Assembly: GCA_963726335.1 (NCBI GenBank)
Contig: CAVSCD010000015.1
Location: forward strand, 203,790 to 267,789
DNA: 64,000 nt
Direction of reading: 5' to 3'
Origin: Candidatus Aminicenantes bacterium
Lineage (GTDB): Bacteria > Acidobacteriota > Aminicenantia > Aminicenantales > UBA8522
Part shown: piece by piece, positions 4,079-17,746 of the stretch
How the letters are laid out: every line of letters begins with the position of its first letter
Position numbering within the stretch: position 1 is the stretch's first letter
Position numbers and translations under genes: made by a program
Notes under the pieces: model-generated
Databases searched by the model: none
What the model was told of the DNA's origin: nothing
Seen by the model: the letters and a program-made list of their open reading frames with translations, nothing else

Positions 4079-5137
4079 TCAAGCCGGCCGCTGCTCCCAC
4101 GGGGCGAGCTTGTCGAGCCCGGAGGGCCGGGGATTGATCTCGAGGACGACGGGCCGGACCTTGCCGTCCGTCACCTCGAGAAGCAGGTCCACTCCGGCGA
4201 TGCGCAGTTTTTGCGGCAGGCCGGAATTGAATGCGGCCAGGGCCCGCACGGCGGCCGAGGGAAGACTCCGTGCTTCCTCATTGGTCAAGACAAGCCTGCG
4301 GAACCCAGCCGTCTCCCGGTAATAGAGATGGGCCATGGCCTCTGAGGGCGCGACGATCCGGCCCCCTTTTTCGGGCGAGGTGAGAGGCTCGTTTTCCGAG
4401 GCGCTGATCTCGGCAAAGCCCGAGTCCGCCTCGACCTCCGCCTCCGGCTGCCAGAGGAAAACCCTGAAGGTCACCGGGCGATAACCTCTTTCGTTTTCCT
4501 CACTTTTGTAATAGAAGACGTTTCCCCTGGCCTTCTTGACGATCACTTGCCGGTCCCGCAGGATGCCGGAGACGACCTCGGCCGTGAAATCGGGCGATTG
4601 CCGGAATTCATCGGCGGAAAAGAAATACGTCTCCCGGCCCTCGGTCCCCTCGTTGGGTTGAACATAAAAGCCGGAGGCATCATGCCGGGCCAGGAAACCG
4701 CTCAGCCGCCGGCTGATCCTCGAGTGATCGGACTTTCCGAGAAGGACGGACTCGGGGACAGGGATATTTTTCGCCGCCAGTCTTCGAATGGTCAAGTGCT
4801 TGTTGCCGGCCTTCCGGGAGCTCGAGTAGGGATTGAACAGGGCGACGTGCCTTCTTTGGAGGAGACTCGAGATCTCCCGATGGAAGGATCGCTCGGCGAA
4901 GGCGGGCAGGCTGAGGATGACGGCCTCCTCGAACAGGGGAGGCCGGCCCGATATGTCCTCCTCGATCTCGAATCGGTCGTTTACCGACCACGCCCGCCGG
5001 TCCTTTTTTTCCGGGCGCCAGGCGACCGCGATATATTTACGATGCCCGCCTCTTCGGAGTTCCCGGAGCTGGAAAAAGGACAGGACTTCCCTGATGTATT
5101 CCCGGTCGGTGCCATGGACGATGGCGAGCCTTTTCAC
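4079..5137 (-). CDS. ATP-grasp enzyme, RimK-like (alpha-L-glutamate-ligase-like fold); substrate unknown
   Basis: 352 aa. Carries the pre-ATP-grasp/ATP-grasp signature order AGNKHLTIRRLAAKNIPVPESVLL ... FYVQPNEGTEGR ... VVLEINPRPSGL (E-x-N metal motif). The GTG start overlaps the stop of the upstream giant ORF (GTGA at 5134..5137). Confidence 0.65.
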   Translation of the reverse strand: MKRLAIVHGTDREYIREVLSFFQLRELRRGGHRKYIAVAWRPEKKDRRAWSVNDRFEIEEDISGRPPLFEEAVILSLPAFAERSFHREISSLLQRRHVALFNPYSSSRKAGNKHLTIRRLAAKNIPVPESVLLGKSDHSRISRRLSGFLARHDASGFYVQPNEGTEGRETYFFSADEFRQSPDFTAEVVSGILRDRQVIVKKARGNVFYYKSEENERGYRPVTFRVFLWQPEAEVEADSGFAEISASENEPLTSPEKGGRIVAPSEAMAHLYYRETAGFRRLVLTNEEARSLPSAAVRALAAFNSGLPQKLRIAGVDLLLEVTDGKVRPVVLEINPRPSGLDKLAPWEQRPA

Positions 5138-8100
5138 ACCGGCAATTTTTCCTTGTACCGGCGGGCGCGCTGGCCCAGACAGTCGAAGATGGTGAAGACT
5201 CCCTCTCCTTTTCTTTCCGGCGGGAGACGGTCATTGTGCGGGCGCCACAGGCCCGCGCCGGGATTGGCTTCGATCTTGAACACGGTCAAGGCCGGCAGGG
5301 GATTTTTGTGCGCGTCGAACAGCCGGCGTTTTTTCCCTTGGGCGTCAAAAAGGGGCACGGGCAGCGGCCCACCGCTCCGATCCGTCCGCGCGACCTCATT
5401 CCCGGTTTCATCGAATATCTTCACCCGGGTGGGCCGGCCCCGGTCATCGAACAAGGGAAGAAGTCGTTCGGTTTCCGGGTCTAAGATCCGGCGGAGGTTA
5501 TCGTGCTCGTCGACCAGGAAGACCGGCATGTAGTCGCCCATCTCGTAGGGAATGCCGTTGCAGGGGAAACCCGTCAGGTCGGTAAAAACCTCCCGGTAAC
5601 GGACGCGGCCGGCGAATTCCGGATGGATCTTCAGGTAACTCTCGAGAACTTTCCGCCAGCTCCGCTCGAGATAGCGGGATTGATATGTCAGGCTGTCACG
5701 GGCCGCCCGGGTGATCTCCCGCCGCATGTCCTCCCGGTACCGGGGATCGATGATGTCGTCCGTGTACTCGTAGAGGAGTCCTCCCTGTCCCACGTTGGCT
5801 ACGCCCTGGGTGCTGACAACCGTGATGTTTTGGGAAACGACGAAACCGTCTTCGCCCAGAACCAAAGCCTGCCGGAAATACGAGTAGAGGGGAGTCAGGG
5901 GGTCCCGGTCCAGAAGCACCGGGATGCCGATCCGGGCGAAACGCTCCACCAGCGAGTCCAGGAATTGCGCTGAGTACAGCTGGCGCACCCGCGAGGGCAG
6001 GACTTCCTGGATAACGGCGTTGTCATTCTCGGAGATCTCGTAGACCAGGTCGGCCAGCGAATCGATATTCCCGGAGAGCCAGCGCCCGGCGCTCCGGACC
6101 GGCAGGATCAGCGATTTTCGTCCGCCGGATTCCTTTTCCGGCTTTACGATCAGTGTCTCGTGCCTGGCGGCCAGCCGCCGGATCTTCTTCTTGATGCCGG
6201 ACTTGGCCTCCGGGCCCTGCCTGGCGGTGTCTTCCAGGTACCAGTTCTCCTGGTCCGGAACCTTGACGCCGCTGCCTCGGAGCATGGCCGGCAATTCGCA
6301 TTTCAGATGGGTGGCGGCTTCCCAGATCAACGGCTGGATGATCGGGATCCCGAAGAAGTCGATCTCCGGCCTCAGGGGATGCGTGAAATGGAAAAAGAGC
6401 CCATGGAGGACTAGCGGGCGGTCGAAAACGGCCAGGACCAGCCCGGAAGCCGGTCCGCCGACCGGGGGGTGTTTCTCCCTGAATGCGGCCAGGTCGGAAG
6501 CCGGGGGATAGAAAAGCCCTTCCTTGACGGTCAGGATCTTCCGCCCGTTCTCTTCGGCCGGGATCGGGAAAGCGCTGAGAATCAGGTTGACACCGGATAC
6601 CTCGGCCAGCTTCGGTCCCTGTTCGAGTGCCACAGGTACCGTCGTATTGCCGTAGGGATAGATGATGCCGACGTTGGTCCGCCGGCCGGCCATCATCTCC
6701 TCCGGGGCCAGGCCGACGAAGATCTCCGGATAGCCGAATCCCTCATACTGAAGCACCACGACATCCCGGAGCCGGGCGTAGTGGAACCAGAAAAGCTCCT
6801 CCTCGGTCTCTCCGCGGACGCCGATGGCGGTGATGTTCCGGCCCGGGTCGCCTAGATAGAGGTCGCGATATTCCGCCGGCTGGTTCTGTAACGGGGTCTT
6901 GGTATCGATCAACCAGCGCAGCCGGGCGTACAGCCAACGGTGGAATCGTCCGGCCAAGGCGAACTTGTCGGACCGCGACAGCTTCTCCAGCGCCGCGGAC
7001 CGCTCCTTGTGGTAATGGTAAGGCAGGTAATCGAAGAGATGGTTATTGACCGTCCGGTCGAAGAACTTCGCGCAGGCGGAGTTGACCTCGTCCGGGGCGG
7101 AGCAGCAGCCGGTCCTGTCGAGGAGCAGAGCGATATCGCAGAGCTCCAGTCCCCGGCCGATGTCCTCGGTGAATGAGCGGTCGCCCGGTTTCAGGCCCGC
7201 CGCCGACGCCAGCCGGGTGGCGAGCGCCAGGTAATCCGCCTCGCTGATCTCTCCGCCGGAAAATACTTTTTCGATGAGGGACGGGATCCCGCGCCCGCCG
7301 ACCGCCAGCCGTTTGTCCAAGGACTCGATATATTTCCCGGCCGCCGCCAGAAAGGCGCCCTGTTCTTCGTTGGAGATATCCCGGTCGCCCGGGCCCAGGA
7401 TCTCTTTGGCTTGGGCATGGAGGGCGGCCAGGGACCGTCCGGGGAAAGCGGATTTGCGCCGGGCGGTGAAGGCGGCCGTCCGTTCCTGCAGATAGACGAG
7501 CTTCAGGTACTCTTTCTTTCGTGTTTCCCAGCGGGCCGCCCGCACCGTCTTCTCCTCCACCGCTTTGAGGGAGCCGGCGAGGCCCGTGGTGATTTCCCGG
7601 TAGCCGGCCGCCGTCGGCCGGAAGATCGGCCGGAAGACATGCCCGATGATCTTCAGGATCCGGGTCTCCGCGTAGCCCCGCCGCGCCGCGCCGCTCAGCT
7701 TGCGGCAGCTCGCCTCGAAGGCTTTATTCAGCTCGGCCAGCTCATCGGCGTCCTTCTTGCCGTTCACGAGATAAAGCCCGCCGAAGATCAGCCATTTTCC
7801 GAAATCGAGCTCCGCCAGGCTCTCGGGACCGGCCAGGCTGAAGTATGTATCGGCCGTGAAGCGGTCCCGTTCCGTCCACAGACCGAGCTTCTTCGCCTCG
7901 TCTTCCTCGTTGAGGACCGTCTCCAGCTTATCGGAGGCGGCGATATTCCGCCGGATCTCCGAGAGCCCCTGCTCAACTTCCCGGCGGTTTCCGCGCAGCA
8001 CGGCGTCAAGCAATTTGCCGCTCAAGGCCCTTTCTTCCCGCATTTCCCTCCGCCAGCCCTCGACCGTCTCCCGGCCGGTCCCCAGGCAGCCGTAAGAGGC

Positions 8101-10032
8101 TTTTTCATCCAGGGCGAAGAGTTCCTTCACTTTTCTCCGGGCGTTCGGCTGACGGAAAGCGAAGGCCGGGCGGCGGCCGCCGGAGGTGCCGTCGGCCAGC
8201 ACCAGGGCGGAGGACGGCCGGGCTTTCTTCATCAGGAAAAGAAGCTCGGGCAGGTTGTCGATGAGCTCCAGGAGCTCCGGGTCGGGAATTCCCAGATCGA
8301 CGAAATCGACTCCCTGAACGGCTTCCCGGTAGGAAGCGAACGGACCCCTTTTCTCCGTGACCAGCAGATGGATCTTGCCGTCGAGATCGCGCCGGACTTT
8401 CTCCAGTTCGCGTTTCGGCCTGTCCCGCAGGCCCACCCAGCGCCTCAGGTTGCCGCCGTAAACCGCGGCATTGGTCCGGATGATGTCATCATCAAGACCC
8501 AGGTCCTTCAAATAGTCGTCGACCCGGTTCTTGACCTCTTCCAGACCGGATTCCGGGACATGGTTCAGGATGTCGGAGCCGGTGCACCGGCCGACGATCC
8601 TGATGTCTCCGGGAGGGACGAAGCGCTCGAACATCTCGCCGATGATCCGCCGGCCCTCGGGGTCCAGGTCAAGGAGGATGTGTTCAGCGGCCGTTTTCGC
8701 GTAGATCTCCAATTTGCGGCTCCCGGCGCTGAATCTCACGTCGGAAACCGGCGTCAGCCGCCCGTCTTCAAGCTCCCCCTCCTTGTAGTTGGCGGTCATG
8801 ACGCCGATCAGGTCTTCGTCGGCGGCGATCCGGGGATCCCGCCGGCGGGCCTCCTCGAGCAGGCCGTAGATCAGCTTCACTTTCCTGAATGGGCCGGTGC
8901 GGTTGATCTCTTCGAGCCCTTGGGCCTTCTTGTTCACCCAGCTCGTGAAGCGGTATTCCAGGTCCCGGGCTTTCTCGTCGCCGGCGGTGAGGATGCCCAT
9001 GCGTTCGAGCGTCCGGCCGATCTGCGGCAGGCGCGCCAGACAGGCCGGCCCGCCCAGGATCCGGAAATACTCCGGGTAGCGCCGGTGAAGATGGGCGGCC
9101 GCCCGGTCTTCCCAGTCCAACTCGGAGGCGCATTCCGGCCGCCAGGAGAGAGCCTCGCGCAGGTCGGCCTTGACCGCGTCCTGGATTTTCTCGGGGATGC
9201 CGAACGAAGCCAGCATCCGGGCCGAGACTTCCCTGTCGACGCAGGCGTTGATCACGGCGTAGAGAAGGCTGAACTCCTTCGGCACGCAGAATCCGCCGTA
9301 GGTCTCTCCGGACGGAAGCACCATCCGGTCGCCGCGCATATTCCACTGGTTCCGGAAGAACTCGAAATCGCCGATCTTCAGGGCGTCCAGGTTGATCCCG
9401 GCGGTGAGCGACAGATAATACGGTCCGCCGCGGGAGAAGAAATTCTCGCCCACCTTCAGGAACTCGGCCATCCGGGTGGAGGGGACGGCCGTGGGCCCGG
9501 CGACATTATAGAGCCGGTAGAGGTCGCGTCCGGCGAGCGCCGAAAATTCGTCGATGCCGCCGACCCATTTCGGGATATCCTGGACCGAATGAACTTCCCG
9601 GGCGCCCAAATCCACCCGGCTCGGCGTGTAGAGCAGATTGTATTTTTTGTAGGGCCCGGCGGCCTCGTAGCGGAGAAGCGGGTTGTCGAGCTCCGGCAAG
9701 AGCCCGTCCTCGACGACCACTTCCTTCCTGGCGTTGATCCGGGAATACGTCGGACTCAGGTAGCTCTTGAGAAATCCGCCGATCTTCTCCTCGAGACCGT
9801 ACTCTTTAATCAACTGGAGCCGGGTATCCTGCAGCAGCCGGACTTCCTCCTCTTCCAGCGCGTCCGATCCCAGGCGGGCGGCCAGCCCGGGTGCCGAGGC
9901 GGCCAGCCGTTCCAGGACACATTCCGGCTCCCGGGCCGCCAGGCCGGGGGAATCGATGCCGTTTCCTTCGCGGCCCAACAGCAGGGCCAGGGCGGCGGCC
10001 TGTCTTCCCGCCTCGGGAAAGGCGAAGAGCAC
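5134..10032 (-). CDS. giant uncharacterised protein (1632 aa as called) with a C-terminal ATP-grasp-like module
   Basis: Uninterrupted ORF with balanced amino-acid composition. The last ~450 aa show ATP-grasp motif order: ETLIVKPEKESGGRK, AVIQEVLP, VANVGQGG, FKIEANPGAGLW. I recognise no family in the first ~1150 aa and see no obvious TM segment or signal peptide. The only in-frame start is GTG at 10032, and the frame stays open upstream to the TAG at 10125..10123. Confidence 0.7.
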   Translation of the reverse strand: MLFAFPEAGRQAAALALLLGREGNGIDSPGLAAREPECVLERLAASAPGLAARLGSDALEEEEVRLLQDTRLQLIKEYGLEEKIGGFLKSYLSPTYSRINARKEVVVEDGLLPELDNPLLRYEAAGPYKKYNLLYTPSRVDLGAREVHSVQDIPKWVGGIDEFSALAGRDLYRLYNVAGPTAVPSTRMAEFLKVGENFFSRGGPYYLSLTAGINLDALKIGDFEFFRNQWNMRGDRMVLPSGETYGGFCVPKEFSLLYAVINACVDREVSARMLASFGIPEKIQDAVKADLREALSWRPECASELDWEDRAAAHLHRRYPEYFRILGGPACLARLPQIGRTLERMGILTAGDEKARDLEYRFTSWVNKKAQGLEEINRTGPFRKVKLIYGLLEEARRRDPRIAADEDLIGVMTANYKEGELEDGRLTPVSDVRFSAGSRKLEIYAKTAAEHILLDLDPEGRRIIGEMFERFVPPGDIRIVGRCTGSDILNHVPESGLEEVKNRVDDYLKDLGLDDDIIRTNAAVYGGNLRRWVGLRDRPKRELEKVRRDLDGKIHLLVTEKRGPFASYREAVQGVDFVDLGIPDPELLELIDNLPELLFLMKKARPSSALVLADGTSGGRRPAFAFRQPNARRKVKELFALDEKASYGCLGTGRETVEGWRREMREERALSGKLLDAVLRGNRREVEQGLSEIRRNIAASDKLETVLNEEDEAKKLGLWTERDRFTADTYFSLAGPESLAELDFGKWLIFGGLYLVNGKKDADELAELNKAFEASCRKLSGAARRGYAETRILKIIGHVFRPIFRPTAAGYREITTGLAGSLKAVEEKTVRAARWETRKKEYLKLVYLQERTAAFTARRKSAFPGRSLAALHAQAKEILGPGDRDISNEEQGAFLAAAGKYIESLDKRLAVGGRGIPSLIEKVFSGGEISEADYLALATRLASAAGLKPGDRSFTEDIGRGLELCDIALLLDRTGCCSAPDEVNSACAKFFDRTVNNHLFDYLPYHYHKERSAALEKLSRSDKFALAGRFHRWLYARLRWLIDTKTPLQNQPAEYRDLYLGDPGRNITAIGVRGETEEELFWFHYARLRDVVVLQYEGFGYPEIFVGLAPEEMMAGRRTNVGIIYPYGNTTVPVALEQGPKLAEVSGVNLILSAFPIPAEENGRKILTVKEGLFYPPASDLAAFREKHPPVGGPASGLVLAVFDRPLVLHGLFFHFTHPLRPEIDFFGIPIIQPLIWEAATHLKCELPAMLRGSGVKVPDQENWYLEDTARQGPEAKSGIKKKIRRLAARHETLIVKPEKESGGRKSLILPVRSAGRWLSGNIDSLADLVYEISENDNAVIQEVLPSRVRQLYSAQFLDSLVERFARIGIPVLLDRDPLTPLYSYFRQALVLGEDGFVVSQNITVVSTQGVANVGQGGLLYEYTDDIIDPRYREDMRREITRAARDSLTYQSRYLERSWRKVLESYLKIHPEFAGRVRYREVFTDLTGFPCNGIPYEMGDYMPVFLVDEHDNLRRILDPETERLLPLFDDRGRPTRVKIFDETGNEVARTDRSGGPLPVPLFDAQGKKRRLFDAHKNPLPALTVFKIEANPGAGLWRPHNDRLPPERKGEGVFTIFDCLGQRARRYKEKLPV

Positions 10033-11788
10033 CTTCAGTATCGCCTCCGGCTTCTTTTTCTCGTCCGGGCCGGACCGGTAAACCTCCGATCCCGAGTTTG
10101 TTCTCGCGAACGACCTTCTCGCCTAACCGGACCAGGTTCCGCCGCCACGTCTCTATCTTGGCCAGGACTTTTTCCTCCCGGCCGGTGTGCCGGATCACGT
10201 TGCAGAGGAGCATGCTCTCTTCGAGCCAGTTTTTGACGTTGAACTCGGTCTCTCCCGGGCCGAGCGTGGTCAGCACGTGGGCGGAGGGAAGGGCGCGCCG
10301 GGGATGATCGACGATCTCCCGATAGGCCGCCGCCCGGTCCGCCAGCCCGTTCGCGGCGGTGAACTTCGTTAATTGCCCGGCGGCGGGCCGGCGGCAGTCA
10401 AGGTCTTTTCGGAACCGCCAAACCAGATTCCGGTCGGTTTCCTCCCCAAGCACGAGCTTCTTGAGACCGTCGTAGCGCAGGCATCTGTCTGCTTCGCACA
10501 GGCGGCCCGTTTCGAGCGCCAGATTCTCATAGGTTTTCTCTATCAGGGCGGCGGCACAGGCCGTCGCCGGGCCCCTGTCGCTCAGGGCTATCCGTGGCAG
10601 CGTGGCCAGGATTTCCCGGGCGAGGGCGACATGTTCGGTGAGCATGACATCCCGGATATTTTCAGCCCAACTGTCGGCGTTGGCCCGGTACATCTCCTCC
10701 AGGATGGAGCGCTGGACCTGGGCGCGGAAACGGTAGCCGCCTTTTTCCGGGATGATCTGGTAGGAGGCGTAGGCCGGGAGAGCTTCGATCCAGTCGTCGC
10801 AGACCTGCAGCCAGTCCGTCATGTCCGGAGTGACATAGATATTCTCGCCGCCGCCGGCGAGAAGTTGGTGGAGATGGGGGTCTTCCCCGAAGAACGGTTC
10901 GGACAGCTCGTTCAGCAGTCCCAAATAAATGGCGTCGATGGGGAAGATCCTCTGGAAGAAGACCATGTAAGCCGGGGACCGGCCCGGCAGCGCGGCCATC
11001 CGGTTCTCGAACTTCCGGATCGCCGTCCGCAACCTGTCGAGCGTCCTTCGGGCGCCGGCGAAATCCGCCGGTAATTGGCCGTCTTCGAACTTCCGGATGA
11101 GCTTCACTTCGTAGTCGAGGAGCCCCTTTTTCAGCTTGGCCAGCCCGCCGGAAATCTGGGCGAGCGAAACCTCCGGTTCAAGGGCCGATCTCTCCAGGCG
11201 CTGGATCTCGCCCGCGATGTAGGAAGGATCGTACCGCAGCGCCGCCGTGATCTTTTTCAGCTCGGCGAGAAATCCGGTCAACCGGCCCGTCGGCACGAGC
11301 TTGGCGTTGGCCAGAAGGAGGGCGTCGATATAGAAAGCGCGGCTGAACCGGCCGCAGACGAGGCGCCTCCTCTCGGTCCGAGCCCGGAGCGACAGGCGGC
11401 GGCTGCAGTCCCGGTCTTCGGCTTCCCGGTAGGTGTCGGCGACTGTCCTGTAAATGGCGTTCCGCAAAGTCTCCAGGTCTTTTTCCGCGGCGATGATCCG
11501 TCTGACCTTGTCGCCGTCGTAGGGAAGGCCGAAGGTTTTCCTGGCCAGCAGCCAGGCGCAGGCTTTTTCCTGTTCGAGGGCATCTCCGGCCCCCCGGTTG
11601 AGGAACCGGAGATAAAAACGGCTTTCCCCGGTCCCGGCCAACAATTTCTTCAGGCGTTCTTTACGGTCGGCGGGCAGCTTCCTGTAGCGTTTCAGCAGGG
11701 AGATCAGCACGCTCTTCTTGTTCGCGGCGCTCAAGGCTGAAATGAATTCTTTGTCTGTCACGATCCTGTCCCTCGCATCCAAAATCAT
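9806..11788 (-). CDS. uncharacterised protein; probably the N-terminal ~565 aa of the downstream giant protein, separated from it by an assembly frameshift
   Basis: Starts at ATG 11788..11786 (MILDARDRIVTDKEFISALSAANKK...). The longer 12082 start runs through low-GC intergenic DNA. Composition is protein-like up to ...RNLVRLGEKVVRENKLG (about 10095). It then becomes R/G/P-rich while overlapping the giant ORF by 227 nt. Confidence 0.6.
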   Translation of the reverse strand: MILDARDRIVTDKEFISALSAANKKSVLISLLKRYRKLPADRKERLKKLLAGTGESRFYLRFLNRGAGDALEQEKACAWLLARKTFGLPYDGDKVRRIIAAEKDLETLRNAIYRTVADTYREAEDRDCSRRLSLRARTERRRLVCGRFSRAFYIDALLLANAKLVPTGRLTGFLAELKKITAALRYDPSYIAGEIQRLERSALEPEVSLAQISGGLAKLKKGLLDYEVKLIRKFEDGQLPADFAGARRTLDRLRTAIRKFENRMAALPGRSPAYMVFFQRIFPIDAIYLGLLNELSEPFFGEDPHLHQLLAGGGENIYVTPDMTDWLQVCDDWIEALPAYASYQIIPEKGGYRFRAQVQRSILEEMYRANADSWAENIRDVMLTEHVALAREILATLPRIALSDRGPATACAAALIEKTYENLALETGRLCEADRCLRYDGLKKLVLGEETDRNLVWRFRKDLDCRRPAAGQLTKFTAANGLADRAAAYREIVDHPRRALPSAHVLTTLGPGETEFNVKNWLEESMLLCNVIRHTGREEKVLAKIETWRRNLVRLGEKVVRENKLGIGGLPVRPGREKEAGGDTEGALRLSRGGKTGRRPGPAVGPRRKRHRFPRPGGPGAGMCPGTAGRLGTRAGRPPGIGRAGRGGSPAAAGYPAPVD

Positions 11789-11805
11789 AGGCTCAGCAGG
11801 TAAGC

Positions 11806-11835
11806 ATAATATTCGGCCCCGGGAGCGCCTGTCAA
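11806..11835 (-). promoter_or_regulatory. sigma70-like promoter candidate for the giant ATP-grasp cassette
   Basis: On the minus strand: TTGACA (11835..11830), 18-nt spacer, TATTAT (11811..11806). It lies about 20 nt upstream of the ATG at 11788. Confidence 0.4.
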
Positions 11836-12036
11836 TGAACAAAATTCTCAGGTTCTCCAAGATGAGATGGCCGTTGCGCCTGACGGGTCCTGTCACGGTT
11901 CTCCCCCGGCGCCCGAACGGTCTATCATGTTCACTGCTTATCAAGAAGTTTGCCGCATCAAACGTTCGGTCGGCGGGGGGCCCCCGAACCGCGCCACCCA
12001 TCGAGCGCAATCGAAAACGGTTCTGACGTGGGGCAG

Positions 12037-12067
12037 TTGAAAAAAATGGCCGCCTGGTATATATAAT
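12037..12067 (+). promoter_or_regulatory. sigma70-like promoter candidate for the RHH-sat-cysC unit
   Basis: TTGAAA at 12037..12042 is followed by a TATATATAAT block at 12058..12067. This gives TATATA at 17-nt spacing or TATAAT at 19 nt. The surrounding intergenic stretch is AT-rich. Confidence 0.4.
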
Positions 12068-12136
12068 GGTTTCATTTTGCATAACTTAAGCCCGCTGTCC
12101 CCGACCGGGGAGCCGGCCAGGATTAAAGGATTGATC

Positions 12137-12349
12137 ATGGACAAAGAGCTGATGGCTGTTTCTATTCCGGCTTCCCTTTACAGGAAGATCGAGGAGACGA
12201 TCAAAGGGACCGGGGAATCGTCGGTCGAGGACTACGTGACCAAGGTCCTCAGGGAAAAGCTCTCCCAGATGGCCCCGGGCGAGGCCTTCACCAAGGAAGA
12301 CGAGGACAAGGTCAAGGCGCGGCTCAAGGCGCTCGGCTACATCGACTGA
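12137..12349 (+). CDS. small ribbon-helix-helix (CopG/Arc-like) protein
   Basis: 70 aa starting MDKELMAVSIPASLYRKIEETIK, with an AAAGGA RBS at 12125..12130. The N-terminal beta-strand/helix pattern is typical of RHH proteins. The assignment rests on pattern only. Confidence 0.5.
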   Translation: MDKELMAVSIPASLYRKIEETIKGTGESSVEDYVTKVLREKLSQMAPGEAFTKEDEDKVKARLKALGYID

Positions 12350-12415
12350 ATCCTGTCCGCGACGATGACGATCGTTGGGACACGAAGCGTGCCGGCTGAA
12401 GATACGGAGGATAAG

Positions 12416-13564
12416 ATGATCCCACCTCACGGCGGAAAGCTCGTCGACAGAGTGCTCAAGGGCGACTGCCGGGAAGAGGCGCTGGAGAAGGCGAAAAGCC
12501 TGCCGGTCCTCAAGATCGACGACGAATCCATATCCGATGTCGAGAACATCGCCACGGGCGTTTTTTCGCCGCTCGAGGGCTTCCTGGGGAAGAGGAGTTT
12601 CCGGAGCGTCCTCCACGAGATGCGCCTGCCGGACGACCTCCCCTGGACGATCCCGATCATCCTCGACGCCGGACGGGAGGAGGCGGCCGGGTTCAAGGAG
12701 GGCGGCGAGGTCCTTCTCGCCGGCCACGACGGGCATCCGGTGGCCATCCTCCATCTTGAGGAAAAGTACGAATATGACAGGGAGGAGCTCGCCGAGAAGG
12801 TTTTCCTGACCGCCGACCGCGCCCACCCGGGCGTCGCCAAAGCGATGGCCAGGAAAGATATCCTCTTGGCCGGCCCGGTCGACCTGATCGACATCTCGCC
12901 CACGCCGTTCGACAGGTACAAGCTCAGCCCCAAGGAAACGCGCATCCTGTTCAAGGAAAAGGGCTGGAAGACGGTGGTCGCCTTTCAGACCCGGAACACG
13001 CCCCATATCGGGCACGAATACCTCCAGAAGACCGCCCTGACGTTCACCGACGGGATCTTCGTCAACCCGGTGATCGGCCGGAAAAAGAAGGGCGATTTCA
13101 AGGATGAGGTCATCCTCGCCTCCTACGAGGAGCTCATCCGCAACTATTACCTCAAGGAGCGGGCGGTCATGGCGATCCTGCAGATGGAGATGAGGTACGC
13201 CGGGCCGCGCGAGGCCATCTTTCATGCCGTCGTCCGGAAGAATTTCGGCTGCACCCACATCATCATCGGCCGGGACCACGCCGGCGTCGGGAATTATTAC
13301 CTGCCCTATGCCGCCCAGGACATCTTCGAGGAGTTTCCCGACCTGGGCATCGCGCCGCTCTTTTTCCGGTCGTTCTATCACTGCCGGAAGTGCGGGTCGG
13401 CGGTGAACGAGAAGACCTGTCCCCATCCGTCATCCGAGCACATCCAGTTCTCGGGGACGAAGATCCGTGACATGCTGGTCAAGGGCGAGGTCCCGCCGCC
13501 CGAGCTGATGAGGCCGGAAGTGGCGGAGGTCATCATGCGGTTCAAGGATCCGTTCGTAGCCTAG
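12416..13564 (+). CDS. sat: sulfate adenylyltransferase (ATP sulfurylase)
   Basis: QTRNTPHIGHEYL and GRDHAGVG motifs. Start chosen at ATG 12416, preceded by GGAGGA; the ORF track start at 12365 has no RBS. Confidence 0.9.
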   Translation: MIPPHGGKLVDRVLKGDCREEALEKAKSLPVLKIDDESISDVENIATGVFSPLEGFLGKRSFRSVLHEMRLPDDLPWTIPIILDAGREEAAGFKEGGEVLLAGHDGHPVAILHLEEKYEYDREELAEKVFLTADRAHPGVAKAMARKDILLAGPVDLIDISPTPFDRYKLSPKETRILFKEKGWKTVVAFQTRNTPHIGHEYLQKTALTFTDGIFVNPVIGRKKKGDFKDEVILASYEELIRNYYLKERAVMAILQMEMRYAGPREAIFHAVVRKNFGCTHIIIGRDHAGVGNYYLPYAAQDIFEEFPDLGIAPLFFRSFYHCRKCGSAVNEKTCPHPSSEHIQFSGTKIRDMLVKGEVPPPELMRPEVAEVIMRFKDPFVA

Positions 13565-13587: not shown

Positions 13588-14142
13588 ATGGCCGAAAAAA
13601 CTTGCTGCGATCAGAAGGGGTTCACGCTCTGGTTCACCGGGCTGCCCTGCTCGGGGAAGTCGGTTGTGGCCGACCGCCTGGCCGAGGTGCTCAAGGCCCG
13701 CGGGCTCAGGGCGGAGCGGCTGGACGGCGACATCGTCCGCCAGAGCCTGACCCGGGACCTGGGCTTCTCGCGCCAGGACCGGGACGAGAACATCCGCAGG
13801 GTGACGTTCGTGGCCAAGCTCCTGACGAGAAACGGGGTGGCGGTGCTGACGTCGTTCATCTCGCCCTACCGGGACATCCGGGCCGAAGCCCGCCGGGAGA
13901 TCGGCGAGTTCATCGAGGTCTACACGAAGTGCGCCCTCGAGGTGTGTATCGAGAGGGACGTCAAGGGCATGTATAAGAAGGCCATGAGGGGGGAGATCAA
14001 GGAATTCACCGGGATCTCCGACCCCTACGAAGAGCCCCTGGACCCCGAGATTCTCCTCGAAACGGACAAAGAGACGCCTGAAGAGAGCGTCGGCAAGGTC
14101 CTGAAGCGGCTCGAGGCCATGGGCTGCCTCAAGTCCGAATAG
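13588..14142 (+). CDS. cysC: adenylylsulfate (APS) kinase
   Basis: 184 aa with P-loop GLPCSGKS, LDGDIVR and family length. Confidence 0.9.
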   Translation: MAEKTCCDQKGFTLWFTGLPCSGKSVVADRLAEVLKARGLRAERLDGDIVRQSLTRDLGFSRQDRDENIRRVTFVAKLLTRNGVAVLTSFISPYRDIRAEARREIGEFIEVYTKCALEVCIERDVKGMYKKAMRGEIKEFTGISDPYEEPLDPEILLETDKETPEESVGKVLKRLEAMGCLKSE

Positions 14143-14155
14143 AGGAGAGGGGACC

Positions 14156-15082
14156 ATGGGATTCCACCTCGTCACCGGAGGGGCGGGCTTTATCGGTTCC
14201 CACATCGTCGAGGAGCTTCTGACGCGGGGGGAGAGAGTCCGTGTCCTGGACAACTTTCTCACGGGCAAGCGGGAAAACCTCGCCCCCTTTCTCGACCGGA
14301 TCGAGCTCATCGAGGGCGACATCCGCGAGCCGGCCGCCTGCCGCCGGGCGGTCGACGGGGTCGACGACGTCCTCCACCAGGCGGCGCTGCCGTCGGTGCC
14401 AAGGTCGATCGAGAACCCGGTTCTATCCAACGAAATCAGTGTGAACGGGACACTCAACATGCTATGGGCTTCACGGGAAGCCAAGGTCAAGAGGTTCGTT
14501 TTCGCTTCTTCGTCTTCCGTTTACGGGGACGAAACAGCGCCTGCCGCAAAAAGAGGGAAGGAGGGAAATGTCCTATCGCCTTATGCGCTGGGCAAGAAGG
14601 CGGGCGAGATGTACTGCTCGCTTTTCCGTAAGCTCTATGGGTTGGGGACCGTCGCCCTGCGGTATTTCAATGTCTTCGGTCCCCGCCAGGATCCTTTATC
14701 CCAGTATGCCGCGGCGGTGCCGCTGTTCGTCACCAGGTTTCTCTCGGGACAGGGTCCGACGATCTTCGGGGACGGGGAGCAATCCCGGGATTTCACCTAC
14801 GTCGCCAACATCGTCGAGGCGAATCTTCGCGCCCTCGACGCTCCCGAAGCGGCGTTGGGCGAAGTCTTCAATATCGCCTGCGGCCAGCCGATGACGGTCA
14901 ATTCGCTGGCGGACGAGATCAAACGGTTGACCGCGGCCGCGGCGTCGCACCGGTGCATGCCGAACCGGCGCGCGCCGGCGAGATCCGTCACTCGCTCGCC
15001 GACATCTCGAAAGCCGCCAGGATGCTCGATTACGCGCCGTTCGGACCTTGCGCGACGGCCTTGTCAAAACCGTCGATGGTAA
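14156..15082 (+). CDS. NAD-dependent nucleotide-sugar epimerase/dehydratase (UDP-glucuronate/UDP-glucose 4-epimerase-like); 3' end frameshifted as assembled
   Basis: Rossmann motif GGAGFIGSH and SDR catalytic region YALGKKAGE. From about 14930 the expected C-terminus (VAPVHAEPARAGEIRHSLADISKAARMLDYAP, then RTLRDGLVKTVD) is readable only by changing frame twice. Confidence 0.8.
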   Translation: MGFHLVTGGAGFIGSHIVEELLTRGERVRVLDNFLTGKRENLAPFLDRIELIEGDIREPAACRRAVDGVDDVLHQAALPSVPRSIENPVLSNEISVNGTLNMLWASREAKVKRFVFASSSSVYGDETAPAAKRGKEGNVLSPYALGKKAGEMYCSLFRKLYGLGTVALRYFNVFGPRQDPLSQYAAAVPLFVTRFLSGQGPTIFGDGEQSRDFTYVANIVEANLRALDAPEAALGEVFNIACGQPMTVNSLADEIKRLTAAAASHRCMPNRRAPARSVTRSPTSRKPPGCSITRRSDLARRPCQNRRW

Positions 15083-15097
15083 AGGGAAGGGGTTGAC

Positions 15098-16418
15098 ATG
15101 AACCCAGAGTTCGAAGCGCTGAAGAAGAAGATTGAGGCCAAACACGCCCGCGTGGGCGTGGTCGGCCTCGGCTACGTGGGGCTGCCGCTCGTCAAGCTGT
15201 TCCTGAATAAGGGCTTTTCGGTCACCGGGTTCGACATCGACCCCCGGAAGGTGTCCCTGCTGAACCAGGGCCAAAGCTATATCCGCCACATCTCCGCGAA
15301 GGAGCTTCAGCTCTTCCTGAAGCAGAAGAAATTCAAAGCGACCGCCGATTTCTCGAAGCTCAGGGATGTCGACGCCGTCATCATCTGCGTGCCGACCCCC
15401 CTGGATGCCCACAAGAATCCCGACCTGTCGTACGTCCTGGGGACGGCCGAGGTCATCGGCAAGTATCTGCGGAAGGGCCAGTTGGTCTCTCTCGAGAGCA
15501 CGACCTATCCCGGGACGACCGAAGAGGAGCTCCTGCCGATCCTCGAGCGCCGCGGACTCAAGGCCGGCCGGGACTTCTTCCTCGCCTTCTCGCCGGAGCG
15601 CGAGGATCCCGGCAACAAGCAGTTCTCCACCGAGACCATTCCCAAGGTCGTCGGCGGCCTCACGCCGGACTGCCGCCGGTTGGCCGGGTTGCTGTACGGC
15701 CAGGTCGTCCTCAAGACCATCATCGTTTCCTCGCCCCGGGTCGCCGAGGCCGTCAAGCTCTTGGAGAACATCTTCCGGTCGGTCAACATCGCGCTCGTCA
15801 ACGAGATGAAGATCATCCTGGAGCTGATGGGCATCGACGTCTGGGAGGTCATCAAGGCGGCCTCCTACCAAGCCCTTCGGCTACATGCCCTTCTATCCCG
15901 GCCCAGGCTACGGCGGTCACTGCATTCCGGTCGACCCCTTTTACCTGACCTGGAAGGCGAAGGAAGTCGACTACAACACCAAGTTCATCGAGCTCGCGGG
16001 CGAGATCAATACCCGGATGCCTTATTACGTCGTCAACAAGACGATCGAGGCCCTGAACGCCAGGGGCCGGTCCATCCGCGGCGCGAAGGTCCTCGTCCTG
16101 GGCATCGCCTATAAGAAAGACATCGACGACCAGCGGGAGTCACCCACCCTCAAGATCGTGAGCATCTTGAAAGCCAAGGGAGCCCGGGTCGATTACAACG
16201 ACCCGTATGTGCCCCGGTCGTCGGGCCACCGCGAGTATCCCGGCCTCGAATTGCGCTCGGTCGCCCTGACGGCCCGGCGCCTCAAGTCGAGCGACGCGGT
16301 CATCATCGCCACCGACCATTCGAGCTACGATTATGACTGGATCGTGAGTCTGGCGCCGCTTGTCGTCGATACCCGTAACGCGGTCGGCCGCAAGAGAAAG
16401 AACGTCGTCAAGGCCTAG
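15098..16418 (+). CDS. UDP-sugar (UDP-N-acetyl-amino-sugar type, WbpA/WecC/TviB-like) dehydrogenase; one frameshift as assembled
   Basis: N-terminal GVVGLGYVGLPL in ORF 15098... The catalytic segment TKPFGYMPFYPGPGYGGHCIPVDP continues in ORF 15885..16418. An extra base near 15866 (cctccTacca) separates the frames. Confidence 0.8.
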
Positions 16419-16441
16419 CGGCCTCCGAGGAGGCGGGAGCC

Positions 16442-17746
16442 ATGAAGATCGGAGTCATCGGCACAGGCTATGTCGGGCTCGTGACGGCGGCCGGGCTGGC
16501 CGAGCTGGGCCACCACGTGACCGGCACGGACAAGCTGGGGGACAAGATCGAAAAGATCTCCAGGGGAGCCATCCCGATCTACGAGCCGGGGCTCGACGAG
16601 CTCCTCGCCGCGAACGTCAAGCAGAACAGGCTATCCTTCAGCCCGGACCTCGACCGGACGATCCGGGAAGCCGACGTCATCTTCGTCTGCGTCGGCACGC
16701 CCCAACACCCCGACGGCAGCGCCGATATGTCCCAGATCGAGGAGGTTTCCCGGCTCATCGCCCGGAACCTCAACGACTACAAGGTCGTCGTCGAGAAGAG
16801 CACGGTCCCGGTGAAGACCTCCTTCTGGATCAAGCGCACGATCTCCCTCTACAAGAAAGCGAACATCGAGTTCGACATCGCTTCGAACCCCGAGTTCCTG
16901 CGCGAGGGTTCGGCGGTCGCCGATTTCCTGAACCCCGACCGGATCATCGTCGGCGTCGAAAGCGACAGGGCCCGCGACATCCTGTGCGGCATCTACGACC
17001 GCTTCAAGGAGCGGGTCGTGGTCACGAACATCGACACCGCCGAGCTGATCAAGCACGCCTCGAATTCGTTTCTCGCCCTCAAGATCTCCTACATCAACCT
17101 GATCGCGAACATCTGCGACAAGACCGAGGCCAACATCGAGCAGGTGGGCAAGGGCATGGGCCTCGACCCCCGCATCGGCGGCCGGTTCCTCAAGGCCGGG
17201 ATCGGCTACGGCGGCTCCTGTTTTCCCAAGGACATCAAGGCGCTGGTGAACATCGGCGAGGAGTTGGGCGTCGACATGAGCCTGCTCAAGGAAGCGGACC
17301 GGATCAACCTCGACCGGGGGCACGCCTTCATCGACAAGATCAAGGGGGCGCTCTGGATCCTCAAGGACAAGGAGATCGCCGTCCTGGGACTGGCCTTCAA
17401 GCCGGAGACGGATGACATCCGCGAGGCCCCGAGCCTCCGGATCGTCAGGGAGCTGCTGCGGGAAGGGGCCCGGCTGAGGCTCTACGACCCTCAGGCGGCC
17501 GGGAACTTCAAACATCAATTTCCCGAAGCGGCCGGGCGGGTCGCCTATCCGGCCTCGGTCTACCAGGCGGTGGAGAAGGCGAACGCCGCCCTCATCCTGA
17601 CCGAGTGGGAGGAGTTCGCCAAGCTCGACCTGGCGCGGGTGAAGCAGGCCATGGCCAACCCGATCATCGTCGACGGCCGGAACATCTTCGATCCCGAGAC
17701 GCTGAAAGGGCTCGGGTTCGAATACTATTCCATCGGCCGCAAATAA
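16442..17746 (+). CDS. ugd: UDP-glucose 6-dehydrogenase
   Basis: 434 aa with MKIGVIGTGYVGLVTAA and GYGGSCFPKD, full length. Confidence 0.9.
   Translation: MKIGVIGTGYVGLVTAAGLAELGHHVTGTDKLGDKIEKISRGAIPIYEPGLDELLAANVKQNRLSFSPDLDRTIREADVIFVCVGTPQHPDGSADMSQIEEVSRLIARNLNDYKVVVEKSTVPVKTSFWIKRTISLYKKANIEFDIASNPEFLREGSAVADFLNPDRIIVGVESDRARDILCGIYDRFKERVVVTNIDTAELIKHASNSFLALKISYINLIANICDKTEANIEQVGKGMGLDPRIGGRFLKAGIGYGGSCFPKDIKALVNIGEELGVDMSLLKEADRINLDRGHAFIDKIKGALWILKDKEIAVLGLAFKPETDDIREAPSLRIVRELLREGARLRLYDPQAAGNFKHQFPEAAGRVAYPASVYQAVEKANAALILTEWEEFAKLDLARVKQAMANPIIVDGRNIFDPETLKGLGFEYYSIGRK

Follow-up and report, generated by a model that had tools for sequence, protein, structure and literature searches.

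A giant protein family combining dehydrogenase-like and ATP-grasp modules: a frameshifted member in Candidatus Aminicenantes and a possible role in sugar-acid chemistry

The window analyzed here is a stretch of 64,000 nucleotides from a Candidatus Aminicenantes bacterium (assembly GCA_963726335.1, contig CAVSCD010000015.1), and the system in question is a minus-strand cassette at positions 4079 to 11788 that encodes a giant protein followed by a smaller ATP-grasp-like protein. As given, the sequence contains three minus-strand open reading frames (ORFs): C (4079..5137, 352 amino acids), B (5134..10032, 1632 amino acids), and A (9806..12082, 758 amino acids). ORFs A and B are a single gene, running from 11788 to 5134. 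The features of the giant gene and of gene C are the following.

5134..11788, minus strand: giant gene (ORFs A and B), about 2,217 amino acids after removal of the frameshift; ATG at 11788, stop codon TGA at 5136..5134
10060..10109, minus strand: frameshift zone, with one extra base relative to the intact orthologue, placed by the alignment near 10087
9697..11788, minus strand: family-specific N-terminal region (~690 amino acids), helical apart from a small beta region and rich in invariant Arg and Trp
9262..9696, minus strand: core resembling UDP-sugar dehydrogenases, from motifs and NCBIfam and Protein Data Bank (PDB) profile matches
9627..9604, 9468..9442, and 9309..9274, minus strand: dehydrogenase-like motifs TPSRVDLG, AEFLKVGEN (Lys, Asn), and GETYGGFCVPKE (Cys codon 9288..9286), respectively
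8041..9261, minus strand: probable rest of the dehydrogenase-like module, from structure only and with approximate boundaries; includes YK...DVRFS at 8787..8728
6724..8040, minus strand: helical middle region (~440 amino acids; residues about 1240-1680) with conserved motifs, for example HLFDYLPYHYH at 7041..7009
5137..6723, minus strand: pre-ATP-grasp plus ATP-grasp module (~530 amino acids), from the AlphaFold2 model and Foldseek
6147..6118, 6015..6001, 5796..5779, 5547..5527, and 5277..5251, minus strand: ATP-grasp motifs VKPEKESGGR, VIQEV, NVGQGG, YEMGDYM, and KIEANPGAG, respectively
5296..5508, minus strand: beta-hairpin repeat insertion (~70 amino acids, FDxxGxP-like units) between the putative Asp and Glu/Asn metal ligands
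4079..5137, minus strand: gene C, a divergent ATP-grasp-like protein of 352 amino acids, with a GTGA overlap with the giant gene and conserved adjacency

An initial reading of this locus from its sequence only had considered A and B to be probably one gene, and intact homologues establish that they are. A search with B returned 110 homologues, 105 of them longer than B itself. About 90 are single chains of 1,860-2,730 amino acids that cover 94-100% of B, the rest being shorter, partial or fragmentary. The closest homologue, P0001 (2,208 amino acids, from a Candidatus Aminicenantes metagenome-assembled genome, or MAG), is 79% identical to A over 556 residues without a gap and 83% identical to B; its start, MNDKDF, aligns at ATG 11788, which is the true start of the giant gene rather than 12082. 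ORFs A and B overlap by 227 nucleotides in different frames, the frame of B being open upstream to about 10125. The 96-residue tail of ORF A (10088..9806) has a GC content by codon position of 0.46/0.81/0.78, against about 0.63/0.44/0.80 in the real coding parts, and is thus read out of frame. Alignment of the junction with the DNA of the P0001 locus ('CTCGGGATCGGAGG' versus 'CTCGAAGCC-GAAG') places the extra base within a short, poorly conserved linker, and removing any one base in 10060..10109 yields a single ORF of 2,217 amino acids, from ATG 11788 to the stop at 5134, that is colinear with intact homologues of 2,200-2,700 amino acids. Relative to the orthologue, A has a ratio of nonsynonymous to synonymous substitution rates (dN/dS) of 0.23 and B one of 0.17, so that both halves are under purifying selection.

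The extra base is most likely an assembly or sequencing error or a very recent real mutation. An unlikely but not negligible alternative is that the frameshift is real and that the gene in this genome has recently become a pseudogene or yields two polypeptides, A with its 96-residue out-of-frame tail and B from GTG 10032. The extra base does stand in the given sequence, no second assembly of the same organism was found to contradict it (two scans of a metagenome collection found no second copy of the junction sequence), and the window's own B protein is missing from the database matches. Against this, there is exactly one lesion in 6.6 kb, situated in a variable linker beside a short G run, a typical site of assembly errors; both halves keep the coding GC pattern, 79-83% indel-free identity to the orthologue and a dN/dS of 0.17-0.23; and most homologues (about 90 of 110) are long single chains. 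The alternative bears on the state of this copy, not on the function of the family. In annotation, ORFs A and B should be merged and flagged as frameshifted.

The fold of the giant protein was examined with two AlphaFold2 models of the orthologue (83% identical), each built from 33 aligned sequences. Model 1 (residues 1-1150) has a mean predicted local distance difference test (pLDDT) score of 86.9 and a predicted template modelling (pTM) score of 0.85, and model 2 (residues 1101-2208) has values of 86.2 and 0.78. The C-terminal ATP-grasp module had been proposed from motifs, all of which are present as quoted, and the model supports a three-subdomain ATP-grasp fold for the last ~530 residues (pLDDT 86). 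Its best Foldseek match is DcsG (E 3.5e-5, template modelling score 0.61, the highest found), and Ddl, MdnC, LysX, RimK, and GshB are also matched, with probability 1.0. Four residues do not vary among 43 family members, Lys in VKPEK, Asp in YEMGDY, and Glu and Asn in KIEANPGAG, and the Gly-rich loops are invariant as well; from the order of the motifs, the four are the putative ATP-phosphate and Mg-binding residues. The FDxxGxP-like insertion appears in the model as a beta-meander. In sequence the module has diverged strongly. One giant homologue carries a precomputed match to PF02955, and a profile of the ATP-grasp slice found nucleoporin noise only in the PDB.

This module thus shares its fold, Lys, metal ligands, and Gly-rich loops, in canonical order, with ATP-grasp carboxylate-amine ligases such as RimK, LysX, D-Ala-D-Ala ligase, DcsG, and glutathione synthetase, and the ligase core is shared by protein C as well. 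Unlike these enzymes, the giant protein carries its module at the end of a 2,200-residue chain and with the ~70-residue beta-hairpin insertion, while C has Gln in place of the Lys.

The initial reading had left all of A and the first ~1150 residues of B unassigned. This holds insofar as no annotated family covers the protein and profile searches did not place the N-terminal 1,700 residues in any characterized family with a known pathway, but residues about 113-257 of B match UDP-sugar dehydrogenases. The core was found with the NCBIfam model TIGR03026 (E 2.4e-5), with a profile of the giant family against PDB entry 3g79 (E 6e-7), and by sliced hhalign (probability 75%); in addition, the window's own UDP-glucose dehydrogenase matches one giant family member (phmmer, E 2e-6). 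The full-length family profile found only this core in the PDB, plus coiled-coil noise. Distant giant homologues match Pfam PF00984 (for P0095, 25.2 bits against a cut-off of 25.4), and the window's giant protein does not reach the gathering scores of PF00984, PF03721, or PF03720. The dehydrogenase-type Lys and Asn (AEFLKVGEN) and the Cys (GETYGGFCVPKE; GGFCVPKE) are invariant in 52 homologues, while the Asp that follows the Cys motif in the dehydrogenase pattern GGxCxPKD is Glu in the giant protein. By Foldseek, the resemblance extends over 330-400 columns to whole UDP-sugar dehydrogenase chains of 410-450 residues (probability 0.97-1.0). For the UDP-binding domain, a YK...DVR alignment appeared in profile-profile comparison without reaching significance, a weak negative because the dehydrogenase alignment is low in diversity.

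With the UDP-glucose, GDP-mannose, and UDP-ManNAc 6-dehydrogenases, then, the giant protein shares the sequence of the central domain, the Lys/Asn and Cys motifs, and Foldseek coverage of most of the chain. It differs from them in its large insertions, in a Ser at the Glu of the dehydrogenase 'PE' motif, in the lack of a recognizable GxGxxG, and in being an embedded module. The remainder of the protein is more singular. The N-terminal region (residues 1-690), which includes the strand-loop-helix HVLTTLGPGETE and has a pLDDT mostly above 85, gave no fold match by Foldseek against the PDB, and region A matched just 75 clusters, all of the giant-protein family, among 1.84 billion representatives. 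The middle region (residues about 1240-1680) likewise showed no match to known folds, bringing the total without a sequence or fold match to about 1,100 residues.

Gene C begins within the last codons of the giant gene. On the minus strand, B ends CCG GTG TGA and C starts GTG AAA AGG, an overlap of GTGA at 5137..5134 that had been described correctly and through which C is translationally coupled to the giant gene. By profile comparison with the giant C-terminus (hhalign probability 94.6%, E 7e-8), C is a paralogue of the giant protein's own ATP-grasp module, and the metal ligands are conserved in it. Its weak matches to ATPgrasp_ST, ATP-grasp_3, MptN, and RimK are all below threshold, the best in Pfam being PF14397, 'sugar-transfer associated ATP-grasp' (19 bits against a cut-off of 31.4), and a profile of the C family found nothing in the PDB. 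The first description of C as RimK-like is sound only in that the protein is ATP-grasp-like. Membership of the RimK family was rejected, since TIGR00768 gives 22.5 bits against a cut-off of 143.4, over residues 83-137 only, and the canonical Lys is Gln; gene C should not be named RimK.

The family is present in at least 158 of 185,579 GTDB species representatives, including Omnitrophota, Latescibacterota, Armatimonadota, Planctomycetota, Gemmatimonadota, Aminicenantes, Sumerlaeota, and Methylococcaceae, and further members come from Bathyarchaeota-labelled MAGs and from the genomes of dictyostelids and archamoebae. No Pfam, NCBIfam, or PADLOC model describes the family: scans with A, B, and C were sub-threshold only, and the PADLOC anti-phage defence models gave no match for any of the three. 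A literature search found no paper on the family; papers on Omnitrophota 'giant genes' were set aside, as they concern much larger, unrelated proteins. The kinds of enzyme are familiar, but the family itself, its architecture, and about half of the residues are new.

Gene neighbourhoods were surveyed in 82 non-redundant loci (81 fetched plus the window), a sample of the 158 species hits. Of the 62 loci that have 1.5 kb of flank or more, 47 carry a homologue of C directly downstream of the giant gene and in the same orientation, and the two are fused in 16 proteins, which bears out the proposal that the second ATP-grasp gene is a genuine partner. Of 37 well-flanked loci, 19 have a GHMP kinase immediately upstream of the giant gene or immediately downstream of C, a lower bound because the kinase model missed the kinase of Methylovulum. 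These kinases are of three types, galactokinase/GalNAc-kinase-like, fucokinase-like, and HddA-like, all of them anomeric (C1) sugar kinases. A fusion of giant protein, C, and kinase, always in this order, was found in 12 proteins (that of locus L044 and 11 others, including those of Polysphondylium violaceum and Synstelium polycarpum), and four more, including one of Pelomyxa schiedti, join giant and C only. The full form of the family is a trio of the giant protein, C, and an anomeric GHMP-family sugar kinase.

The Amoebozoa homologues (P0271, at locus L089, P0263, and P0278) suggest horizontal transfer or an ancient origin. In Polysphondylium violaceum, KAF2076817.1 is a single chain of 3,985 amino acids with giant, C, and kinase parts, encoded by a gene with introns, whereas KAH3744193.1 of Pelomyxa schiedti is a giant-C fusion in which a kinase match was not found. 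Other recurrent neighbours or fused domains are GFO_IDH_MocA, AP_endonuc_2, SDR, 6PGD, PGM, Mannitol_dh, PFK, and GlgC-type LbH; of these, an SDR partner was not found in the 64-kb window. Larger metagenomic fusions add domains to the giant-C(-kinase) core: P0269 (7,944 amino acids) adds mannitol-dehydrogenase domains, P0258 (5,618 amino acids) GFO_IDH_MocA and LbH, and P0247 (5,085 amino acids) phosphofructokinase and HD, with P0280 and P0289 as further cases. Long segments of these fusions have no Pfam match, and a PGI-like signature spotted by eye in P0269 was not confirmed.

With moderate confidence, the giant protein is read as a cytoplasmic, multidomain, sugar- or uronate-modifying megaenzyme that carries out ATP-dependent ligations. 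The dehydrogenase-like site, the anomeric kinase, and the sugar oxidoreductase and sugar-phosphate neighbours together point to small-molecule sugar chemistry. In the proposed scheme, the GHMP kinase would phosphorylate a hexose or heptose at C1, and the sugar-1-phosphate, or a nucleotide sugar derived from it, would bind the UDP-sugar-dehydrogenase-like module. That module, in which the catalytic Lys, Asn, and Cys are kept, may produce a uronic-acid or thioester intermediate or keep it bound. The ATP-grasp module of the giant protein and that of protein C would each activate a carboxylate as an acyl phosphate and join it to an amine, probably that of an amino acid. The two ATP-dependent ligations would follow one another and yield a sugar-acid amide conjugate or an oligomer of a few such units. 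The ~1,100 residues without known folds may hold more active sites or organize the complex.

Parts of this scheme have counterparts in known systems. Two ATP-grasp-type ligases, MysC and MysD, act one after the other on a sugar-derived core in the biosynthesis of mycosporine-like amino acids. The logic would be the same, two serial ATP-grasp enzymes adding amino acids to a carbohydrate-derived small molecule, but the giant system has no sugar-phosphate cyclase or methyltransferase partner and the architectures are entirely different. A precedent for the proposed type of reaction, by functional analogy, is Cj1438 of Campylobacter jejuni. The C-terminal TupA-like ATP-grasp domain of this multidomain sugar enzyme amidates glucuronate at its C6 carboxylate (PMC11800379), and an amide formed on a uronic acid is likewise what is proposed here. 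In Cj1438 the ATP-grasp has a GT2 glycosyltransferase as its partner, and the enzyme works on a capsule polymer; in contrast, the giant system has no glycosyltransferase, its partners being the dehydrogenase-like module and the C1 sugar kinase. It is a tentative further possibility that the trio represents an unrecognized biosynthetic megaenzyme of many bacterial phyla, Bathyarchaeota-labelled MAGs, and Amoebozoa. It would make a new class of sugar acid-amino acid metabolites or polymers via two ATP-grasp ligations, perhaps with a new and possibly nicotinamide adenine dinucleotide (NAD)-independent thioester chemistry at a dehydrogenase-derived Cys site, and would have ~1,100 residues of new folds.

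Several observations weigh against reading the giant protein as a sugar-acid ligase. For every family member the chemistry is deduced entirely from the domains present and the genes nearby. No curated hidden Markov model threshold and no PDB sequence match is reached by either ATP-grasp module, and in C homologues the ATP-binding Lys of 'VKP' is an invariant Gln (VQP). The NAD-binding Rossmann GxGxxG was not found in residues 1-720 by profile-profile comparison with the first 150 dehydrogenase residues, a negative weakened by the same low-diversity alignment as above. The region just upstream of the dehydrogenase-like core is predicted to be all-helical, and a structural remnant of a Rossmann domain is conceivable because the Foldseek alignments are 330-400 columns long. 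The replacement of the 'PE' Glu by Ser makes a classical two-step NAD-dependent oxidation doubtful, and the model is least certain at the catalytic Cys loop, where pLDDT falls below 50 (residues 818-829). As to the partners, a GHMP kinase is absent from the 64-kb window and from the orthologous locus L001 of the closest relative, no nucleotidyltransferase is a regular partner, LbH domains occur in one fusion only, and a subclade of giants of ~2,660-2,690 amino acids is without C within 10 kb.

Other functions were weighed on the same evidence. RimK, tubulin-tyrosine-ligase-type enzymes, and graspetide ligases modify proteins or peptides, and the sequence-only reading had favored a peptide- or protein-modifying system in which the giant protein serves as scaffold or substrate-recognition subunit. 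A version in which it is scaffold, recognition subunit, or substrate, and the ATP-grasp ligases add amino acids to a protein or peptide, could draw on the structural neighbours of the ATP-grasp module, among them RimK, the graspetide macrocyclases MdnC and MdnB, LysX (which acts on a carrier protein), and tubulin ligase, as well as on about 1,100 helical residues without a catalytic assignment. It is nonetheless distinctly improbable. The second catalytic-looking module, with its invariant dehydrogenase-type Lys, Asn, and Cys, is hard to explain in a scaffold, and every recurrent partner identified is a sugar kinase or sugar oxidoreductase, with sugar-phosphate enzymes also among the neighbours, and not a precursor peptide, protease, or carrier protein. 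Graspetide systems have an adjacent short precursor gene. Here the giant gene overlaps C and the gap from C to phoH is only 69 bp, so that there is no room for a precursor ORF between giant, C, and phoH, and the only conserved small ORF nearby is a divergent ribbon-helix-helix-like gene, although ORFs below 90 amino acids were not compared across the 82 loci. The product of the family is probably a modified sugar acid rather than a modified protein.

Phosphotransfer is another use to which ATP-grasp folds might be put, the modules phosphorylating a sugar, cyclitol, or polymer without an amide bond in the manner of ITPK1/PPIP5K or dikinase-type enzymes. The kinase domains of PPIP5K2 and Asp1 are indeed among the Foldseek matches, at low rank (E 0.05-0.06), and among the partners are PFK, PGM, an HD phosphohydrolase, GFO_IDH_MocA, and AP_endonuc_2, of which the last two families typically belong to inositol and sugar-phosphate metabolism. 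However, the 29 best structural matches are without exception carboxylate-amine, carboxylate-thiol, or peptide ligases, and C weakly matches models of RimK, MptN, LysX, and glutathione synthetase-type ligases, which leaves this reading improbable. A polymer synthetase resembling cyanophycin synthetase, with two ATP-grasp sites alternately extending a polyamide or sugar-acid polymer for storage or capsule, is very unlikely. It would account for two ligase sites in one complex and for the great size of the protein, and in the window and L001 the gene adjoins sulfate-activation and nucleotide-sugar genes, but that neighbourhood is not conserved past the closest relative and no export or membrane components were seen among the recurrent neighbours. 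Cyanophycin synthetase itself combines an ATP-grasp with a Mur-ligase-like domain, and Pfam, PDB profile, and Foldseek searches of the giant system found no Mur-ligase-like domain, primer-binding domain, or cyanophycin synthetase match.

Purifying selection maintains, at a large cost to the cell, an enzyme of 2,200-2,700 amino acids with two or three conserved catalytic sites, and the product of the sugar-acid-modifying enzyme proposed here probably matters to the cell. The family is readily testable because a cultured methanotroph, Methylovulum miyakonense HT12, carries the trio, and Polysphondylium violaceum, which holds it as one polypeptide, offers a further route.

Around the cassette in the window, the following features were identified.

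11806..11835, minus strand: sigma-70-like promoter candidate, TTGACA-18-TATTAT, 18 nucleotides upstream of the ATG, with 11 of 12 matches
12077..12349, plus strand: small conserved gene between the divergent genes, resembling a ribbon-helix-helix regulator
12365..13564, plus strand: ATP sulfurylase gene, the real gene opposite a spurious ORF of 446 amino acids
about 13588..14142, following ATP sulfurylase: putative adenosine 5'-phosphosulfate (APS) kinase, from synteny with L001

The candidate promoter at 11835..11806 had already been picked out from the sequence. It is one of four such sites found in 10.6 kb, against 1.6 expected, and both of its hexamers are kept in L001, although the intergenic spacer has diverged with a 143-bp indel. 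The small gene at 12077..12349, whose likely product is of ~70 amino acids from an internal ATG ('MDKELMAVSIPASLYRKIEE...'), is highly conserved in DNA with L001 9554..9766, as is the AT-rich block just upstream of it. A minus-strand ORF of 446 amino acids at 12086..13426 was considered as a fourth cassette gene and rejected as a spurious antisense of ATP sulfurylase (codon-position GC 0.85/0.39/0.60).

Downstream of the cassette lie genes for PhoH, a 7TM-HD protein, and YbeY. The arrangement next to phoH-pgpH-ybeY-corC, to which the initial reading had drawn attention, recurs only in L001, and no evidence of a functional link was found; the cassette flanks in general are shared only with this closest relative, the other loci examined being different. 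The sulfate-activation pair is divergent from the giant gene in both, and past the APS kinase follow an NAD-dependent epimerase/dehydratase and two UDP-glucose dehydrogenase genes. In the window (14156..17746, plus strand) these are an epimerase of 308 amino acids, a dehydrogenase ORF of 338 amino acids without a C-terminal domain, and an intact UDP-glucose dehydrogenase of 434 amino acids. L001 (4119..7747) has instead a 727-residue epimerase-dehydrogenase fusion and a dehydrogenase split into genes for 324 and 122 amino acids. These differences could be frameshifts, or true fusions and fissions. The window's own UDP-glucose dehydrogenase finds its best matches in Aminicenantes, probably the group to which the window belongs.

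Elsewhere in the family, two deeply diverged giant paralogues (about 27% identical) share single genomes in the MAG pairs L014/L055, L030/L049, and L043/L064. The clade of ~2,660-2,690 amino acids is usually without an adjacent C, and in L055 and L064 C is situated ~1.3 kb upstream on the opposite strand. In Methylovulum miyakonense HT12 (L048, NZ_KB913025.1 3645908-3672600), the giant gene, C, and a 346-residue HddA-like GHMP kinase stand in a row, flanked by genes for a MASE1 protein, an HD-domain response regulator, and a GGDEF-EAL protein. A distant clade, mostly of Latescibacterota and Gemmatimonadota (L003, L050, L053, L056, L062, L070, L073, L076, and L078), keeps an upstream block consisting of DUF1684, an unknown protein of 210-240 amino acids, a PAS histidine kinase, a sigma-54 response regulator, and an HDOD protein, which suggests sigma-54-dependent regulation.

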